This document shows, in pieces, positions 2,013 through 10,022 of a stretch of DNA of 64,000 bases. Below the pieces are notes generated by a model. That model worked only from the letters and a program-made list of their open reading frames with translations. It made no database searches and had not been told where the DNA came from. Source of the DNA: Candidatus Caldarchaeum sp. (lineage in GTDB: Archaea > Thermoproteota > Nitrososphaeria_A > Caldarchaeales > Caldarchaeaceae). The position numbers and the translations under genes were made by a program. Where the stretch lies: the NCBI GenBank assembly GCA_038844785.1, contig JAWBRA010000004.1, positions 1,496 to 65,495 on the forward strand, given 5' to 3'. Every line of letters begins with the position of its first letter. The first letter of the stretch is position 1.

Positions 2013-3125
2013 ATGTATAAAGGCGGCCGCAAAGCTGTGAGCACAGTCATAGCCGCGATGATAGTAACGGGGGTTTTGCTGGCGTTGTTCAGCGGCCTCT
2101 TATCCGTTCAAACCCGCTTACATCAGGCCGAGGTTGAAGCCGTCAGAAGAGAGGCTGAGAGAGCGATGGAAGCACCGTTCCAAATATACTGGATAAACAG
2201 CACGCATGTGAGGCTCTTTAACAACCACAGCAGCGTACCAGTTATTCTAAGGTTTTGGATAACTTCAGGTGCAACGGTTTCGGTGACAAGCCTAGACCCA
2301 TCCATTTATTCGGTCGGGCCTGGAACGTTCAAAGATGTGAAGGCCGCCGACCTGCCGCGGGTAGTTAACAAGGTTTACAAAGTTGTTTCCGAGAGGGGGA
2401 GCGTTTTCGTCGTGGGTGACATGCCGTCTGAACCCTTCTCCCTCTTCAAGATGTTAGTAAGCGAAAAGCAGGTCAGGCCTGGTTTCACAAGCTCCTCTCA
2501 AGGACCGTTGACAAGCATATTGCTCGGAACCGGGCCAGAGTTCGGTGGAGGGCAGGTAAGCCTTTCATGCGTCTCAGCCTTCCCACCACCAGCATCATGC
2601 GTAGGATGGAGTATCTCGTTCAACCCATCAAGCCCTGTGTATGTTCCGTCGGGTGGAGCCTTGGTAGTAAACGTGCTGGGGAACATACCTGTCGGAACAC
2701 CTTCAGGAACATACTTCATCCGCCTCCGCGCCGACACGGGGGGTTTTGTGAAAGAGTTTCTGCTACAGGTGATGGTGGGAGATTTTACCTTCGCTGTAAA
2801 CCCCGGCTCGATTACTATAGGACGGGGTTGCGCCGGATCGGTGACTCTGTCAATAACGCCGACAAACTATGGAGAATCCATCTCCTTCAGAGTGCTCTCC
2901 GTGACTCCTGCCGACGCCAGGTTTCATTTCGCGTTCACGGCAAACCCGCTCGACCTAAGCCACGGTCAATCAAGCACAAGCCTGTTGATTTACATCAATT
3001 TCGCGACACCTAACACGGCTGTAACTAGAACGGTAGTTGTGCAGGCCTACGACGGCTTAGGTCCTTCAAAAACTGCTTCGATAACCGTAACGGTGAACCC
3101 CAGGTCTGCTACTGGAAACTGTTAG
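2013..3125 (+). CDS. large pilin-like protein with archaeal class III (type IV prepilin-like) signal peptide
   Basis: N-terminus MYKGGRKA|VSTVIAAMIVTGVLLALFSG: basic patch, Ala cleavage context, then an about 20-aa hydrophobic helix. The rest is Ser/Thr/Gly/Val-rich beta-type sequence. Confidence 0.6.
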   Translation: MYKGGRKAVSTVIAAMIVTGVLLALFSGLLSVQTRLHQAEVEAVRREAERAMEAPFQIYWINSTHVRLFNNHSSVPVILRFWITSGATVSVTSLDPSIYSVGPGTFKDVKAADLPRVVNKVYKVVSERGSVFVVGDMPSEPFSLFKMLVSEKQVRPGFTSSSQGPLTSILLGTGPEFGGGQVSLSCVSAFPPPASCVGWSISFNPSSPVYVPSGGALVVNVLGNIPVGTPSGTYFIRLRADTGGFVKEFLLQVMVGDFTFAVNPGSITIGRGCAGSVTLSITPTNYGESISFRVLSVTPADARFHFAFTANPLDLSHGQSSTSLLIYINFATPNTAVTRTVVVQAYDGLGPSKTASITVTVNPRSATGNC

Positions 3126-3228
3126 GATGGCCAAAGTAGTACCAGTCCACTATCACCGTAAAAAAAGTACAGTATATCCAAAAACCGCTCGACTCAAACT
3201 CATATACCAGAAATGCCGACCCCTCGCC

Positions 3229-3672
3229 ATGAAGGGTCGGTCTTCGGTTGGGTTAAGCCCTCTGGTTGCTGTGATACTGTTGATAGCCATAACGGTCGCT
3301 GCAGCGGTGGTGGTGGCAGGCGTTTTCTTCAACCTCAGCAGCATAGCCGGCAGAAGGCCGACAGCAATCATCGACCAGATAAAGCTCGTCGCGACCCCTG
3401 CTGGAGCAGGAACGTGGGCGGTTGTCATCAAAAACACAGGCGACGTGAGAATTACAGGCCTCTCTACTCCTACGTTCCCCGATGGATGCTCGGCGGCCGC
3501 CGGATGGACCTGGAACCCCTCAACAAACGTTAACCCCGGCGCGACCACCGCCGGCACTGGTAGCGCGTCTGGATGTACGCTAGGAAACACCTACCGTATA
3601 TCAATAACAGTGACCTTCCAAGACGGTTCAACACAGGTTTTGGCAACGGCGGTAACAGCATCAATAGCCTAA
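3229..3672 (+). CDS. archaeal type IV pilin / archaellin-like protein (class III signal peptide)
   Basis: MKGRSSVGLSPLVAVILLIAITVAAAVVVAG matches the archaellin/pilin N-terminal consensus. The listed ORF begins at 3127, but the internal Met at 3229 gives the canonical prepilin N-terminus. Confidence 0.6.
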   Translation: MKGRSSVGLSPLVAVILLIAITVAAAVVVAGVFFNLSSIAGRRPTAIIDQIKLVATPAGAGTWAVVIKNTGDVRITGLSTPTFPDGCSAAAGWTWNPSTNVNPGATTAGTGSASGCTLGNTYRISITVTFQDGSTQVLATAVTASIA

Positions 3673-3746: not shown

Positions 3747-4151
3747 ATGGCTGTGAAAACCGGTGGAATCAGCTACGTAGCCGGAGTCCTCCTCGTCCTA
3801 GCCGTAACCGTCTCGACCATAGCCCTTTACACTACGGTGGTGGGATTCCAGTCCCAAACCATCCTCAGCCTCTCAGCCCTCGACATACGCAGAGCAAGCG
3901 AAAGCCTCATTATCGTCGAATACCACAGACCAACCAACACTTTAGTAGTCTACAACAACGGGCTCATCCCGACATGCTTCGTCGAAATAACCGTCGCCGG
4001 AATGGGCGTGGTGTACAGCAACCCATCCTGCACCCCAATCCCACCAAATCAAGCCACAACCCTAACCCTAGCACTTATAAACCCGCCACAAACACTCACA
4101 CTAATAGCCAGAACAATCCACAACAAAATACTCACATACACAATCAGCTAA
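3747..4151 (+). CDS. small pilin-like protein (class III signal peptide) with Thr/Pro/Asn-rich C-terminal low-complexity tail
   Basis: MAVKTGG|ISYVAGVLLVLAVTVSTIAL N-terminus; third consecutive prepilin-like gene. Confidence 0.55.
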   Translation: MAVKTGGISYVAGVLLVLAVTVSTIALYTTVVGFQSQTILSLSALDIRRASESLIIVEYHRPTNTLVVYNNGLIPTCFVEITVAGMGVVYSNPSCTPIPPNQATTLTLALINPPQTLTLIARTIHNKILTYTIS

Positions 4152-4201: not shown

Positions 4202-5128
4202 TTGGCGGCAAAGACAAAGAAAGAAATACTCAAACTCCTCAAAGAAGACGAAGAATTCCGATACGCAGTAGCAGGACTCATAGGGCTGGAGGAAACCCTG
4301 AGAAGACTGGACAAACTCGACCAAAGAATGACAGAACTCCACGAACAACAGGTAAAACTCTGGGAGGAACTCAGAACCCTGAGAGAGGGCCAGGAAAAAC
4401 TCTGGGAGGAGGTCAGAAGCCTAAGAGAGGGCGAGCACAGGCTTTGGGAGGAGGTGAAAAGCCTTAGAGAGGGTCAGGAAAAGCTTTGGGAAAACCAAGG
4501 CAAGCTATGGGAGGAGGTCAAAAGCCTAAGGGAAGGGCAGGAGAAGCTGTGGGAAACCCAAAGCAAACTCTGGGAGGAGGTTAAGAGCCTTAGAGAAGGT
4601 CAGGAAAAGCTTTGGGAGAATCAAAGCAAGCTATGGGAGGAGGTCAGAAGCCTTAGAGAAGGGCAGAACAGGCTGGAGGAATCCATGATCCGCCTTCAAG
4701 ACGCCGTTACACTGCTGACTCAGGCTCACAGGGAGTTGGCGAAACAGGTTGGCGCCCTCTCCGAAACCGTTGGCTTCGGGCTTGAGGACATAGCTAAAGT
4801 CGTTGTTCCTGGCTGGCTCCAAAGGCATGAGGGAATAGTGATGGCGGAGGAGTTCGTCCGCAGATGGATAACGGTGGACGGGGAGGAGATAGAGGTAAAC
4901 CTTTACGGCGAAGGGGTGAAAAACGGCCGGAAACTAGTCATCGTCGGCGAGGCCAAGTCGAGGATATACAAGCGTGAGGTTGAGGCATTTGACGCATGGG
5001 CTGAGAAGGTATCTGCGAGCGTCGGCGGGGAAGTGTACAAGTTCATGTTCGGATACCTCATACATCCGTCAGCCGAGGAAGAGGGAAGGAGAAGAAAAAT
5101 AACGCTAATAGCGTCCTACATGCGTTGA
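4202..5128 (+). CDS. coiled-coil protein with about 9 tandem 14-aa repeats (KLWEEVKSLREGQE) and a C-terminal putative PD-(D/E)xK nuclease-like domain
   Basis: DNA-level 42-bp (and 21-bp half) repeats at about 4350-4680 with synonymous variation. C-terminus has ITVDGEEIEVNLYGEG...KLVIVGEAKSR, a D...E-x-K pattern in beta-strand context. Confidence 0.55.
   Translation: MAAKTKKEILKLLKEDEEFRYAVAGLIGLEETLRRLDKLDQRMTELHEQQVKLWEELRTLREGQEKLWEEVRSLREGEHRLWEEVKSLREGQEKLWENQGKLWEEVKSLREGQEKLWETQSKLWEEVKSLREGQEKLWENQSKLWEEVRSLREGQNRLEESMIRLQDAVTLLTQAHRELAKQVGALSETVGFGLEDIAKVVVPGWLQRHEGIVMAEEFVRRWITVDGEEIEVNLYGEGVKNGRKLVIVGEAKSRIYKREVEAFDAWAEKVSASVGGEVYKFMFGYLIHPSAEEEGRRRKITLIASYMR
4350..4680 (+). repeat. 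in-frame 42-bp tandem repeat array (about 9 units) inside CDS 4202..5128
   Basis: Repeated gggaggaggt(c/t)a(a/g)aagcct(a/t)agaga(a/g)gg(c/t)cag... units visible by eye. Confidence 0.7.
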
Positions 5129-5203
5129 GAGAATTTTAAACGAACAGCGAGGCTATCCAGTATACCCAAAAGGCGTGATTATTAATGCTACGGCTCTAAA
5201 CCT

Positions 5204-5751
5204 GGGACTGTCAACTTAAGGTCTATGGCCTGGGTCTTTCTATTCGTTGGGGTGGATAGAGTTGGGGTTGGCCTAGGCCGTCTTATAGGTTTCTTCGGTG
5301 ATAGGAATGTTTTTCCCCGTCTCAGGACGTCTCCGTGGGTTTAGGGCTGTCGGCGTTAGGCTATATGTCGAGGGGCTCAGGAGGGTAGCTGGGATGTTAT
5401 GCGAGCTAGGGTTTCAGGTAAGCCTTGAGTCTGTCAGGGGTTGGTTCCATATCTCGTCAGGAGGGCCTATGTATGGGCTGATAGCCGAGTGTATAAGGTT
5501 TCTTGAGGTGGTTAGGGTTAGGTACGCTAGTAACCCTGCCGTCTACAGGGATAGAGTTCCATGGTATGGATGGCCTATGAAGGTTCTGGGCTTGAGGAGG
5601 GTGGAGACGTTCGGCAGGAGGAACACGATAGAGTCATGGTTCAGCGGGCTGAAGAGGAGGATAAAACAGTTCAACACGTGCTCCCCAACATACAGGCCGA
5701 AGGTACCGGAGAAGTGGATAAAGGCATGGGTGTCATTAAGTTGACAGTCCC
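5204..5751. mobile_element. IS6-family insertion sequence derivative (internally deleted, about 548 bp) with perfect 16-bp terminal inverted repeats GGGACTGTCAACTTAA and 8-bp target-site duplication CTAAACCT (5196-5203 and 5752-5759)
   Basis: TIRs at 5204-5219 and 5736-5751 are exact reverse complements. The flanking 8-bp direct repeat matches IS6-family TSD length. The internal ORF has an IS6-like HTH and C-terminal N-x-IE-x7-KRR motif but lacks the DD catalytic core. Confidence 0.65.
5298..5744 (+). pseudogene. truncated IS6-family transposase (N-terminal HTH plus C-terminal E-motif region; central DDE segment missing)
   Basis: GMLCELGFQVSLESVRGWFH resembles the IS26 Tnp HTH. RRNTIESWFSGLKRRIKQFN resembles NNxIExxHxxxKRR. 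Length is 148 aa against about 230 aa for intact IS6 transposases. Confidence 0.5.
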
Positions 5752-6056
5752 CTAAACCTCGTCGCCAAACTGAAGGCTACCTCACCCTTGGCCACAGCCC
5801 GTCTCACATACCTGATGTGGATAGAAACACCTAAGGCCAGAACAAAGACTTCAACCGCTAAGCCCAGCGATATGTTGAGGAAAAACGTGAGGGGAACCAG
5901 CAGAATGATTGAAACGATTGCTTCACCGGGGTTTTCGACGGTGTTCACATATCTTCTCCGTCTTTGACTCTCCAGCGCGGTCGACGGTCCAAAATCTTTC
6001 TCGAGCTCCTCCACCATCCCAAAACCGCTCTCTAAATCTGCCCAAAAAGGCGAAAC
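5736..6056 (-). pseudogene. partial paralogous copy of the FlaJ/TadC-like membrane-protein gene (equivalent to about residues 120-250 of the 6156..7544 product), truncated by the IS insertion
   Basis: Translation ...WADLESGFGMVEELEKDFG...RRRRYVNTVENPGEAIVSIILLVPL... aligns with ...GEDLESGFGVVEKVEKYLE...WRRYVDTVETLGEAIVSIILLVPL... of the intact gene. DNA similarity is visible (5913-6060 vs 7046-7190). The stop codon is supplied by the IS terminal repeat. Confidence 0.55.
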
Positions 6057-6155
6057 TCATGGCTTAGATGGCAATACTTGGTCTAAAATGAACACGGGAA
6101 ACCACTGGTCATGCGGAACGTGAACCAGGGAGGTAGTCACGAAACCCCGCATGCA

Positions 6156-7544
6156 CTAGACAAAGAGCGAAGCTATTGAGTAGGCGACGAGCGTGGCTAT
6201 TACTCCTGCACCAGCCCTCCAGACGGCTGCAACAGTCTGGTCTTCGGTCTTGGAAACCGCCACCCCCAGACTGAAGGAAACTATGAGTGCGTTTGGCAGT
6301 ATGGGTTCAAGGGACGGCGTTATGACAAGCTTTTGAACCTCACTTGAGACTTCAGGCGGTAGTGACGTGAACGGCATGATTGCGAAGCTTGAAACGGCTA
6401 TGATTGCCGCGCCGCTTGCGATGGCTAACGCGTCGTAAAGCTTCATCCTTGCTCTTGCGTTGGTGAAGCTAAGGTAGATTGTTATGGCTAGTCGGGCCAT
6501 CAGGCTAAGAGCTTCCGCGCCCAACCCGCCTAAACGAGCCAGCTTGACGGTTTCGATGGACATTCTCATGAACCGGTTCAACGGCTTTACTTCAATACCT
6601 CTCACGATAGCCTTTGCGTACCTAGCGTAGCGCGGGTCGGCAACCATCTCCAAGCTCTTGCCCACAGGGTACCCCGCCCTAAGCCGTGCCGCCACGCTGT
6701 CGAGAAGCAGGAAGGAAGACTCTCCTTCTGAAACACAACGCCTGATATATCGAAAGTGTACGAACAATCCCCAGCCCAGAAGGAGAAGACCGATGGCGGG
6801 CGGAATCATCACCAACGACGTGTTGAGAAAGAACATGAACAAAAATGCTCCAGACACGGCTATGAGAGCTGTTGAGGTGTAGACAATTATGCGTGGGATG
6901 TCAACCAGATGCATAGGCTCGCTTGCAGACGCAATAGTATAGAAGACCGCCGCAGCACCCACTGAAATGAACACGGAATAAAAGGGGGGGAAACCTCCCA
7001 ATATGCCGCCCACGACGTACATCAAAGGAACCAGTAGTATGATTGAGACGATTGCTTCTCCGAGAGTTTCGACGGTGTCGACATACCTTCTCCATCTCTC
7101 GCTCTCCCTCGATATAGATTGTTCCAAATACTTCTCAACTTTTTCCACGACTCCGAATCCGCTCTCCAAATCCTCTCCTAGGGAACCTATCAACAGAGAG
7201 AACTCGCGGCTCGGATGAACGTATTTCTTGAAGCTCTCAGCCAGAGTTGTTTTTTCCCCGACTCTTCTCAGATAACCCGCCTCATGTGAGAGCTTGGCGA
7301 TTATTTCTCGCTTATGCGCCGCCTCCGTCAAAGCATGCAGCACCGTCTTGCCGCTTCTCAAGATGATGTACAGTATCGCAAGAAAATACGTCTGCTCCCT
7401 CTCGGCCGCGGCCTTTTTCTCAGAGTCTGAAATCCTCCGTCGAAGCAAAAGAACCGCTACGGCGAATGATACAATCGATATATGAGGCCAGTAGCTGGAC
7501 ATGAAGCTGAGCAAAAAACGACCTATCGCTTGGGTTTCAAGCAT
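6156..7544 (-). CDS. FlaJ/TadC/PilC-family polytopic membrane protein (type II secretion system F-domain), pilus assembly platform
   Basis: 462 aa with multiple TM helices and two cytoplasmic helical domains. Sits in an operon with the PilB/FlaI-like ATPase. Confidence 0.65.
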   Translation of the reverse strand: MLETQAIGRFLLSFMSSYWPHISIVSFAVAVLLLRRRISDSEKKAAAEREQTYFLAILYIILRSGKTVLHALTEAAHKREIIAKLSHEAGYLRRVGEKTTLAESFKKYVHPSREFSLLIGSLGEDLESGFGVVEKVEKYLEQSISRESERWRRYVDTVETLGEAIVSIILLVPLMYVVGGILGGFPPFYSVFISVGAAAVFYTIASASEPMHLVDIPRIIVYTSTALIAVSGAFLFMFFLNTSLVMIPPAIGLLLLGWGLFVHFRYIRRCVSEGESSFLLLDSVAARLRAGYPVGKSLEMVADPRYARYAKAIVRGIEVKPLNRFMRMSIETVKLARLGGLGAEALSLMARLAITIYLSFTNARARMKLYDALAIASGAAIIAVSSFAIMPFTSLPPEVSSEVQKLVITPSLEPILPNALIVSFSLGVAVSKTEDQTVAAVWRAGAGVIATLVAYSIASLFV

Positions 7545-7555
7545 GACGCCAGCAC

Positions 7556-8503
7556 CTAAATCTTCTCTACCTCTATGCCGAATGTCTCACCTGTTTTAAA
7601 CGCGTTATCCTCCACGTCCGCTCCAGCGATGAACCATCGAACGCGGCCCACAACACCTTGGATGGCTGTCTTCTCGATGTCAAACCTTTTGACCGTCCAC
7701 GAGACTATGTCAAGTGAGGTAACCCTGTACTTGACTGTGTATATCCTTGTCTCAGACTTCTCGCCGCTTATTGCTACAATGTCGAGGAGGTGTTTGGTTC
7801 CGCTTATGCCGATAACTTCAACTTTCTCCCTTACTTCAAACCCCTCTGAGATGAGTTTTCTGATGAGTATCTTCAAAGGGTTGGCTGACTCTATCAGGCT
7901 AAGACCTTGGTCGGTCAGCTCGTATTCTCTGAGAATCATCTGGTCAGCATTTTTTAGTTCGTCGAACCATTCGCATGAAAGACATTCAGCAAGGTAAAGA
8001 GGTTCTGTGAAGATGTTTCCGCACGTGTTGCAGACAAACCTGAAGCCCGCGGTGTTTAAGCTTTTTTCAAGGGTATCTCTACACTTGGGACATACGTCCA
8101 AAGTTTTGACGACGTTTTCAGGTATTACCGCACCGCAGCTATGCATAAAGATGAGAGATTTTGTGATGTCTTCAGACCTGCACGACGTGCAAGCTGTCCG
8201 CGGGTTGAGAAGCGCGCCGCTACATTTAGGGCATCTTAATAGTTTTCTCGAAAACTTTGACCTGAGAAGGTTGTTGTTAACAAGGAAGTCAAGTCTTTCC
8301 ACAAGTTGTTGAACTGACGTGTTTGCTGGCAAATCAGACGAGAGCCTGACCTCGTTAAAAGGCTGGATGACTTCGAAAAAAGTATATGGTTTTCCCTGCC
8401 TAAACATCTCGGCAACACGCATGAGGATCGCAAAATCCTCGGGCTTTAAGCTACTCTGCGACAACTTCCTCCCATCTTCGCTGTTGGTCAACTGCTTTTG
8501 CAA
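7556..8503 (-). CDS. winged-helix-like N-domain plus double zinc-ribbon (CPKC..CTSC, CPKC..CNTC, CLSC) protein of unknown function embedded in the pilus operon
   Basis: Cys pairs in the translation. N-terminal helical HTH-like segment. Lies between the ATPase and the membrane-protein genes. Start may be the internal Met at 8422, which removes the 53-nt overlap. Confidence 0.45.
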   Translation of the reverse strand: MQKQLTNSEDGRKLSQSSLKPEDFAILMRVAEMFRQGKPYTFFEVIQPFNEVRLSSDLPANTSVQQLVERLDFLVNNNLLRSKFSRKLLRCPKCSGALLNPRTACTSCRSEDITKSLIFMHSCGAVIPENVVKTLDVCPKCRDTLEKSLNTAGFRFVCNTCGNIFTEPLYLAECLSCEWFDELKNADQMILREYELTDQGLSLIESANPLKILIRKLISEGFEVREKVEVIGISGTKHLLDIVAISGEKSETRIYTVKYRVTSLDIVSWTVKRFDIEKTAIQGVVGRVRWFIAGADVEDNAFKTGETFGIEVEKI

Positions 8504-10022
8504 GTTCCTCCGCCCTCATTTTAGCATTTTGCTCAAGAAGTTTTTCAATGATGGCAACATTCAACTCGTATCTTCTTCTCAGCTTTGCATCGTTTACAAG
8601 CGTTGGGGAGTTCAAGGCCAGCTGTCGCCGGTTCTCGGGGAAAAATCTATTCAGCGACTGGTCGTACCATGATATTAAATGCTCCTTGCCGACTTTCTCG
8701 ATCTCCCAAACACCTATGACTCTTCTGCCTCTAGGAGTTCCTCTTATCAACACAACGACGTCAAGGAAGCTGAGTTCTTCAGGTAACACGCCCATGCTGA
8801 CCGACGTTAGCCTCTGGTAGACATCTTCGAGGCCTTCGGCATGTATTGTCGAGGCCATGCCATGGCCTGTTGCGGCCGCGGAAAACATGACCCTAGCCTC
8901 TAATCCTCTAACCTCGCCCACAACCGTGTAGTCGGGTCTATGTCTTAGGCTGAGTCGCAGTATGTCGGCGAGGCTGTAGGCTGTTTCGCCGAGTGTTCTT
9001 CGGGTAACGAACCTGTGCCAGTTTTTGTGCCAAGAAAGATTGATCTCTGGATGATAGTCCTCGAGCGTGAGGATTTTGGCGTTGAAGGGTAGGAGCTGGA
9101 GCATGGCGGACAGGAACGTGGTTTTCCCACTTCCCGTCGGCCCAGCCACGATTACGAACTTCTTCGCCTCCAGCATCGTCCAGATGTATGCCGCAGTTAT
9201 TGGGTTGACTGTTCCGTTTCTGATGAGGTCTAAGATTGTGTAGGGCGATCGTGGAAACTTGCGGATGGTTATTGTGCTGGCGCCGGGTGTAAGCTCTCCT
9301 GCATATGTTAATGCAATCCTGTCGCCGTCATGTGTCATAACCTCGGCTGAAGGCTTTGCGATGCTCAGCTCGGCACCGTTCCTCTCAGCAAGAAGCCTCA
9401 CCTGCTTGTCCAGCTCCTCAGCCGTGAACTCGATGTTCGTCTCAATCCAAAGCAGGTCGGGATGTCTTCTGTGTATCACATAGGCTGGCCCAGGCTTGGT
9501 CACGGTTATGTCTTCCAGCTCCTCGTCACGTATCAAAGGCTCAAGCTTCCAGCTGCCCTTCAAATCCTTGACAACATGATATGTAACAGTTTTGAGCTCT
9601 ACTTCATCAAGCTCCAGGTCCTTGAGAATCTTTGAAGGCTCAACACCCTTCTTCACGTAGGCCTCCTCTATCTCGGCGACAATCCGCGCCAGTCTTTCGT
9701 CCAGAGCCGGTTCCTCCACAACGTATTTCACAGACCCATCCTTTTCAATTATCTTCACACTTAGGATTTCATCCACAGTATAATGTTCGATTACAGTTGG
9801 TTCAACGGTCTCTTGAGCAGGATGTGTTTCCTCCTCCTTTTGCATGGGTTTACGACGTCTTCGAAGAAAAGCAAAAGTTACTAAGACGGCTGCTCCTACG
9901 GGTGCAGCAACTATGGATGCGTTTAAGGGACTGGAGAGGATGAAACTGATAAAAATCAGGAATAGGGAAGTCACGATAGCGGCTACCTGTGATAGCGAGG
10001 AGAGCAGCTGCTCTAAGAACAT
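8451..10022 (-). CDS. type II/IV secretion-system ATPase (PilB/FlaI/VirB11/GspE family) with N-terminal hydrophobic extension
   Basis: Walker A VIVAGPTGSGKTTFLSAML, Walker B/His box region, and typical N-terminal domain. The first about 55 aa contain two hydrophobic segments. A TATA element 30 nt upstream supports the 10022 start. Confidence 0.8.
   Translation of the reverse strand: MFLEQLLSSLSQVAAIVTSLFLIFISFILSSPLNASIVAAPVGAAVLVTFAFLRRRRKPMQKEEETHPAQETVEPTVIEHYTVDEILSVKIIEKDGSVKYVVEEPALDERLARIVAEIEEAYVKKGVEPSKILKDLELDEVELKTVTYHVVKDLKGSWKLEPLIRDEELEDITVTKPGPAYVIHRRHPDLLWIETNIEFTAEELDKQVRLLAERNGAELSIAKPSAEVMTHDGDRIALTYAGELTPGASTITIRKFPRSPYTILDLIRNGTVNPITAAYIWTMLEAKKFVIVAGPTGSGKTTFLSAMLQLLPFNAKILTLEDYHPEINLSWHKNWHRFVTRRTLGETAYSLADILRLSLRHRPDYTVVGEVRGLEARVMFSAAATGHGMASTIHAEGLEDVYQRLTSVSMGVLPEELSFLDVVVLIRGTPRGRRVIGVWEIEKVGKEHLISWYDQSLNRFFPENRRQLALNSPTLVNDAKLRRRYELNVAIIEKLLEQNAKMRAEELAKAVDQQRRWEEVVAE

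Follow-up and report, generated by a model that had tools for sequence, protein, structure and literature searches.

The window analysed here, that is, the whole stretch of 64 kb, carries an archaeal type IV pilus locus of a Candidatus Caldarchaeum (Aigarchaeota/Nitrososphaerota) MAG. The locus includes an intact gene for a platform protein, whose product is 100% identical to the MAG protein QXU87_01245 of Candidatus Caldarchaeum sp. Upstream of this gene and on the same (-) strand lie a gene for a T2SSE/FlaI-like ATPase (8451-10022) and, between the ATPase and platform genes, one for a TackOD1-domain protein (7556-8503). Two pilin-like proteins with archaeal class III signal peptides are encoded on the plus strand (3127-3672 and 3747-4151), convergent to the platform operon. 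A further convergent gene encodes a coiled-coil protein, and this neighbour is also present in L001, L002 and L003. The stretch from the coiled-coil gene to the platform gene holds the following features, in which the remains of a second platform-like sequence are called the relic:

4202-5128, plus strand: gene for the convergent coiled-coil repeat protein, 308 aa, which bounds the relic on its far side
5136-5195, minus strand: remainder of the relic on the far side, a continuation of the frame by 14 codons; another frame reads AFWVYWIASLFV-stop
5196-5203, no strand: left copy of the target-site duplication, CTAAACCT
5204-5751, plus strand: IS6-family element of 548 bp with perfect 16-bp terminal inverted repeats (GGGACTGTCAACTTAA)
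5752-5759, no strand: right copy of the target-site duplication, CTAAACCT
5736-6017, minus strand: open frame of 93 codons with an ATG, annotated as hypothetical protein QXU87_01250
5760-5885, minus strand: relic segment 2, corresponding to platform residues ~238-287, a transmembrane helix and the beginning of the second cytoplasmic domain (HxRYVRRAVAxGE motif)
5880-5890, minus strand: deletion junction of the window lineage, an in-frame loss of ~113 bp, placed by alignments with L002, L003 and L020
5862-6047, minus strand: relic segment 1, corresponding to platform residues ~122-183, the end of the first T2SSF domain and the first transmembrane helix
6107-6155, minus strand: spacer of ~49 nt directly after the platform stop, in the window lineage only and absent from L002 and L003 in a three-way alignment
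6156-7544, minus strand: intact platform gene, 462 aa, T2SSF/TadC/UpsF-like

Regarding the intact platform protein, the Pfam scan returned PF00482 (T2SSF) with an E value of 4e-6 and 27.2 bits, against a cutoff of 25.2, and the NCBIfam UpsF model matched with an E value of 1e-21, below its cutoff. Its 27 homologues, with identities of 55-100%, all belong to Caldarchaeum or Nitrososphaerota MAGs, and the full-length ones measure 458-466 aa. As in the T2SSF platform family (FlaJ/ArlJ, TadC, UpsF, AapF), the gene stands beside an FlaI/T2SSE-type ATPase and pilins with class III signal peptides.

Two of the neighbouring genes have features of their own. The TackOD1 protein (PF18551, E 3e-18) has several CxxC pairs, and in all the Caldarchaeum loci examined its gene stands between those for the pilus ATPase and the platform protein. 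It diverges much faster than its neighbours, with identities of 37-53% where those of the platform protein are 56-73%. Only one paper was found to mention the TackOD1 domain; it takes a census of two-component systems in archaea (PMC5847659). The coiled-coil gene (4202-5128, plus strand) contains tandem repeats of the type LWEEVKSLREGQEK at window positions 4349-4680, and these give many offset blastn matches. The length of the encoded protein varies, with 308 aa in the window, 336 aa in L002 and 259 aa in HR01.

A preliminary description of this DNA had proposed that the intact FlaJ/TadC-like (T2SSF) gene is followed directly by a partial paralogue, and a tblastn search of the window with the platform protein bears this out. 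Platform residues 125-183 match positions 6038-5862 on the minus strand with 62.7% identity over 59 aa (E 3.7e-15), and residues 238-290 match positions 5885-5748 on the minus strand, in the same frame, with 41.5-43.4% identity over 53 aa (E 9e-6 to 1e-8). Residues ~184-237 are absent from the window relic, the loss being in frame. No further tblastn matches of the platform protein were found in the rest of the 64-kb window beyond the gene and the relic. The similarity extends to the DNA level, which had been set as a check and proves to be beyond chance, 5893-6038 matching 7027-7172 with 74.7% identity over 146 nt (blastn, E 4e-24). The matched residues had been given as 120-250. The similarity stands, and the range has to be revised to ~122/125-290, with the relic continuing past the insertion element (5136-5203). 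Upstream of codon ~122 no homology rises above that of shuffled sequences, residues 107-118 giving a weak match in another frame (E 0.24), and in local alignments compared with shuffles the 49-nt spacer (6107-6155) resembles neither the platform gene nor anything in the rest of the window or in the fetched loci.

Where the relic aligns with the platform family, it covers the close of the first T2SSF domain, transmembrane helices and the beginning of the second domain. Unlike a member of that family, it spans ~35% of the length of a platform protein, has lost ~30% of the invariant residues and is broken in the sister strains. The ~121 N-terminal codons and codons ~291-451 are missing in all copies, and the full platform architecture of two T2SSF repeats with transmembrane helices over ~460 aa is thus not found in it. 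A Pfam scan of its 106-aa translation recovers no T2SSF domain, the sole match being a sub-threshold DUF2484. A search of the translation against 5.8 billion proteins returned only the MAG's own 93-aa annotation (P0028). The Rfam scan of 5000-6300 on both strands gave no matches, and the promoter and terminator scan gave counts not above those of shuffled sequences. The relic is a remnant and not a platform-family member able to function, and nothing in these scans points to a function for it.

Besides the two main segments, a short stub may derive from the same gene. On the minus strand, AFWVYWIASLFV-stop (WIASLFV-stop) is encoded just ahead of where the convergent gene stops, and the intact platform protein ends in VAYSIASLFV-stop; the stop of the stub lies 7 nt from that of the convergent gene. 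In local DNA alignment the tail fits best to the final 26 nt of the intact gene (nt 1363-1388 of 1389). Taken alone, the score of the stub is not significant (shuffle p 0.07-0.28, tblastn E ~1), and its supportive position was noticed post hoc. In HR01, the stop of the platform gene overlaps the convergent gene. The AFWVYWIASLFV-stop stretch, of ~10 residues, probably represents what is left of the C-terminus and stop codon of a second gene, and the agreement of its position with the overlap in HR01 suggests that this second gene formerly extended to a stop of its own at the ancestral position.

The relic is interrupted by an IS6-family element, with inverted repeats at 5204-5219 and 5736-5751 and an 8-bp target site that is single-copy in the strains free of the IS. 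Like members of this family (IS26/IS240 type; archaeal ISC774-like), it has an 8-bp duplication, short perfect repeats starting with GG and a single ORF (5298-5744), which resembles the C-terminal half of the IS6 transposase and matches the C-terminal part of the NCBIfam IS6 transposase model (E 1.2e-9). Unlike them, the window element is only 548 bp long, its score of 38 bits is below the NCBIfam cutoff of 125, and the Pfam scan of its ORF gave no match. Its relatives of 163-182 aa carry PF13610, and aligned with them the window ORF is ~45 residues shorter in its interior, the VDET motif being among the residues lost. This makes the element a deletion derivative of an IS6-type element and not a complete member, and it is probably non-autonomous and mobilised in trans. 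No other copies were found in the 64-kb window and the plasmid collection; in the population of the window, the IS is multi-copy.

The junction of relic and IS is identical in 8 independently assembled contigs. Two contigs from other assemblies, L015 (3806 onward) and L016 (3798 onward), share this junction and run past the IS into unrelated genes, PAC2/TGT in L015 and an NMT1-like gene in L016; a target duplication to match is missing. Either the assemblies were joined through the repeat, or the IS really did mediate rearrangements there.

It had been suggested that the IS both provides the stop codon of the copied frame and caused its truncation. As to the stop, the observation was accurate, since the last 5 codons and the stop of the 93-codon frame are supplied by the IS, the TAA lying inside the 16-bp inverted repeat at 5736-5751. 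As to the truncation, the data speak otherwise. With the IS and one copy of the target repeat taken out, the relic frame gains just 14 codons before it meets a stop of its own, and a distance of 68 bp separates the insertion site from the end of the convergent gene. The site is empty in L002, L003 and L020, whose platform proteins are 94-95% identical to that of the window and which carry the same truncated relic. The target duplication, the short remaining frame and the empty sites of the sister strains thus show that the large losses predate the IS and are unrelated to it. The IS is a late, strain-specific simple insertion into already dead DNA, and not the cause of the truncation.

The relic of L002, L003 and L020 occupies the same place as in the window, and these three strains allow its decay to be followed. 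All three hold ~113 bp missing in the window, from the stretch of residues ~185-237 with its two transmembrane helices; residues ~213-237 are restored by them, and the relic of L003 aligns contiguously to platform residues 122-247. The internal deletion of the preliminary description is therefore real, but it is a secondary loss specific to the window lineage. In-frame stops interrupt the relic at different codons, a TAA in L003 and a TGA in L002 and L020, and a frameshift is common to all three. Between strains, the relic and intergenic DNA is 78-81% identical versus 94% for the intact gene, and in closer pairs 93-94% versus 98-99%. The relic has thus diverged by 19-22% versus 6% for the gene, a difference of ~3x, and its divergence is near the synonymous divergence of the gene (pS 0.22-0.23). 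By the Nei-Gojobori method, dN between strains is 0.185 for the relic versus 0.029 for the gene, and dS is 0.28-0.40 versus 0.25-0.28. Among the 41-45 family-invariant residues that are covered, 13-17 (~30%) are changed in every copy; the window relic has 8 such changes within the well-aligned part of residues 122-290. In the 11 genome and 25 metagenome loci examined downstream of the platform gene, second copies or relics are confined to the clade of 94-100% platform identity, made up of L002, L003, L020 and the population of the window itself. No second copy was found in the ~30 loci whose platform protein shares at most 76% identity with that of the window, partial genes at contig ends included.

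Homology to the platform gene, lineage-specific lesions and an approximately neutral rate together identify the relic as a pseudogene. The broken frames, the fast divergence and the lost invariant residues indicate that the 93-codon frame QXU87_01250 is an accidental open remainder of it. Two observations run against the pseudogene reading. The differences between the relics of the window (5760-6047) and L003 (6444-6850) fall on the three codon positions as 11/15/27, a third-position excess (p 0.006), and dN/dS between relics is 0.47-0.69 and not 1, though both copies are clearly disabled; this residual signal may come from mutation or composition bias or from the NG86 method. The other is that the window keeps a 93-codon frame with an ATG, from which expression of a small membrane peptide is conceivable.

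This last point bears on the possibility that the 93-codon ORF encodes a functional small two-helix membrane protein, for example an exapted accessory subunit of the pilus. The open frame in the window lineage, the in-frame nature of the 113-bp deletion, the annotation of the frame by gene callers (P0028) and a relic-to-relic dN/dS below 1 would fit such a protein. In L002, L003 and L020, however, stops and a frameshift interrupt the equivalent frame, the 8 changed residues are invariant in the family, the C-terminus and stop come from a strain-specific IS, and no homologue besides itself exists among the 5.8 billion proteins searched, which makes a functional product very unlikely. A comparably low probability attaches to a proposal of the preliminary description, that of a reservoir or silent cassette recombining with the intact gene by gene conversion or antigenic-type variation. 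It could appeal to the closeness and common orientation of the two copies and to the mosaic nature of the pilus locus between strains. But relic and intact gene share no exact match longer than 11-13 nt, synonymous sites are saturated, and it is the pilins that vary, the platform gene being 94-95% identical between strains. Where the intact genes of two strains differ, the relic co-varies with the gene of its own strain at only 2 of 22 sites, so that among these informative sites there is no sign of gene conversion between relic and intact gene, and the proposal is not supported. The most improbable of all is a collapsed or chimeric repeat created in the assembly by the multi-copy IS. The joins of L015 and L016 to unrelated contexts do indicate that the IS confuses assemblies or mediates rearrangements. 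Against an artefact in the window, the 8-bp target duplication matches on both sides, the arrangement is reproduced in L014 and L017, and the IS-free sister strains, colinear with the window, have this relic too. Given the 8 contigs with the same junction and the IS-free relic in L002, L003 and L020, the relic is not an assembly artefact.

In order to understand the age of the relic, its differences from the neighbouring intact gene are informative. The preliminary description envisaged an old duplication followed by decay, and in being old and decaying the relic agrees with it. The disagreement concerns its being a partial copy of the neighbour. Such a partial tandem duplication would have taken codons ~107/122 to the stop of the adjacent gene, would have been dead from birth, and would then have decayed and been truncated by the IS. 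Its geometry is simple, with the relic directly downstream of the intact gene and in the same orientation, starting within the gene and seeming to finish at that gene's C-terminus and stop, and one NJ run places the relic beside the stem of the P0001/P0002 clade. The substitution pattern tells against it. Mismatches between relic and neighbour at codon positions 1/2/3 number 28/17/50 of ~92 in the window and 40/28/66 of ~127 in L003, and an equal distribution across positions is rejected (p ~1e-6). The dN/dS of this comparison is 0.08-0.21, with synonymous sites saturated (pS 0.65-0.74), and the third-position divergence of 52-55%, versus 18-24% at second positions, exceeds the ceiling for a copy evolving neutrally from birth (p 2e-5 to 0.017). 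Nor is the relic especially close to its neighbour, being 56-58% identical to it versus 60-61% to the orthologue of HR01. In a simple NJ analysis of ~131 columns, the bootstrap value for grouping with the neighbour is only 14%, versus 73% with the HR01 orthologue. Site patterns are ambiguous between a sister relationship to the neighbour and one to HR01, with counts of shared-derived sites of 3 versus 4. Segment 2 lacks the derived residues of the neighbour and keeps the family consensus at these places (I267, C270, S272, S276, S277 region). No intact gene of the relic type occurs among the 27 family members, and no sampled homologue is more than 61% identical to the relic. With the IS not being the cause of the truncation either, a duplicate dead from birth is an unlikely explanation. 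The third-position excess, the low dN/dS and the lack of special closeness to the neighbour all point to an old gene that was once functional. The relic therefore derives from a gene that kept its function through most of its divergence, and not from a dead-on-arrival partial copy of the neighbour.

Taken together, the segment is very probably a non-functional, decaying relic of a second T2SSF/TadC-like platform gene that formerly lay between the platform and coiled-coil genes. The second platform gene diverged from the present one while long remaining under purifying selection, and was cut down to residues ~122-290 and a probable C-terminal stub before the sampled strains split. After the split, evolution was approximately neutral, with different stops, frameshifts and deletions accumulating in different strains. 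The window lineage lost a further ~113 bp in frame, and the defective IS6-family element transposed in afterwards, giving rise to the 8-bp target duplication.

The surroundings of the relic differ between strains in an uneven way. Between the window and L003, the housekeeping neighbours are 94-97% identical at the protein level and the platform protein is 95% identical. The 181-aa pilin (3127-3672) is 61% identical to that of L003 versus 84% to that of L013, whose platform protein is only 60% identical. The 370-aa protein (2013-3125) is 40% identical to its counterpart in L003 versus 55% to those of L006 and L007, and the window ATPase is 86% identical to that of L003 versus 97% to that of L002 over the available part. 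Alleles thus appear to have been swapped between near-identical strains at 2013-3672, and the pilus locus is a mosaic, recombination-prone region.

Regarding the origin of the second gene, two histories can be proposed. One is a displacement in situ, in which an incoming divergent ATPase-TackOD1-platform block would have replaced the resident one and stranded its 3' part; we would give this history a chance just short of even. The other is an old full-length tandem paralogue that was later lost, a history to which we would give only slightly less chance than to the first. The data fit both about equally, and we lean slightly towards displacement because the pilus locus is demonstrably mosaic. 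Tentatively, the relic could then be viewed as the scar of a displacement by a block from another Caldarchaeum lineage, one end of which entered by homology and the other by an illegitimate join inside the resident gene.

Gene remnants have reportedly been left elsewhere by xenologous gene displacement in situ, and homology-facilitated illegitimate recombination is said to join DNA in this manner. Several features of the present locus resemble such remnants. A divergent homologue lies exactly at the place of the resident gene, the 3' part of an equally divergent second copy abuts the original downstream neighbour, the two copies show a signature of purifying selection between them, and the neighbouring pilins have been swapped between lineages. 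In contrast to such cases, no donor lineage was identified among the sampled homologues, gene-by-gene identities show mosaicism in the pilins and the ATPase but no recombination breakpoint in the flanks, including upstream, that could be tied to the relic, and the identities of the upstream and downstream genes to outgroups are not discordant. Homologous replacement of loci is on record for haloarchaea, in one of several papers that use the phrase (PMC3542582).

The segment is therefore an ordinary pseudogene relic with a later insertion of an IS6 derivative, and neither a working gene nor a recombination reservoir. For the annotation of the MAG this means that QXU87_01250 (93 aa) and QXU87_01255 (148 aa) are not genes, and that the former should be re-annotated as a pseudogene relic, the latter as a defective IS6 derivative. 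Events in the evolution of an uncultivated hot-spring archaeon can also be dated by the relic, the second platform gene having been lost before the sampled strains split and the IS having arrived after it, and it is useful as a marker of the recombination history of the pilus locus. If the displacement history is true, the locus would offer a concrete case of cassette exchange at a surface-structure locus in Aigarchaeota, of modest specialist interest. Together with the swapping of pilins, it would mean that in Aigarchaeota whole cassettes of type IV pilus loci are exchanged between lineages at species-level distances from one another.
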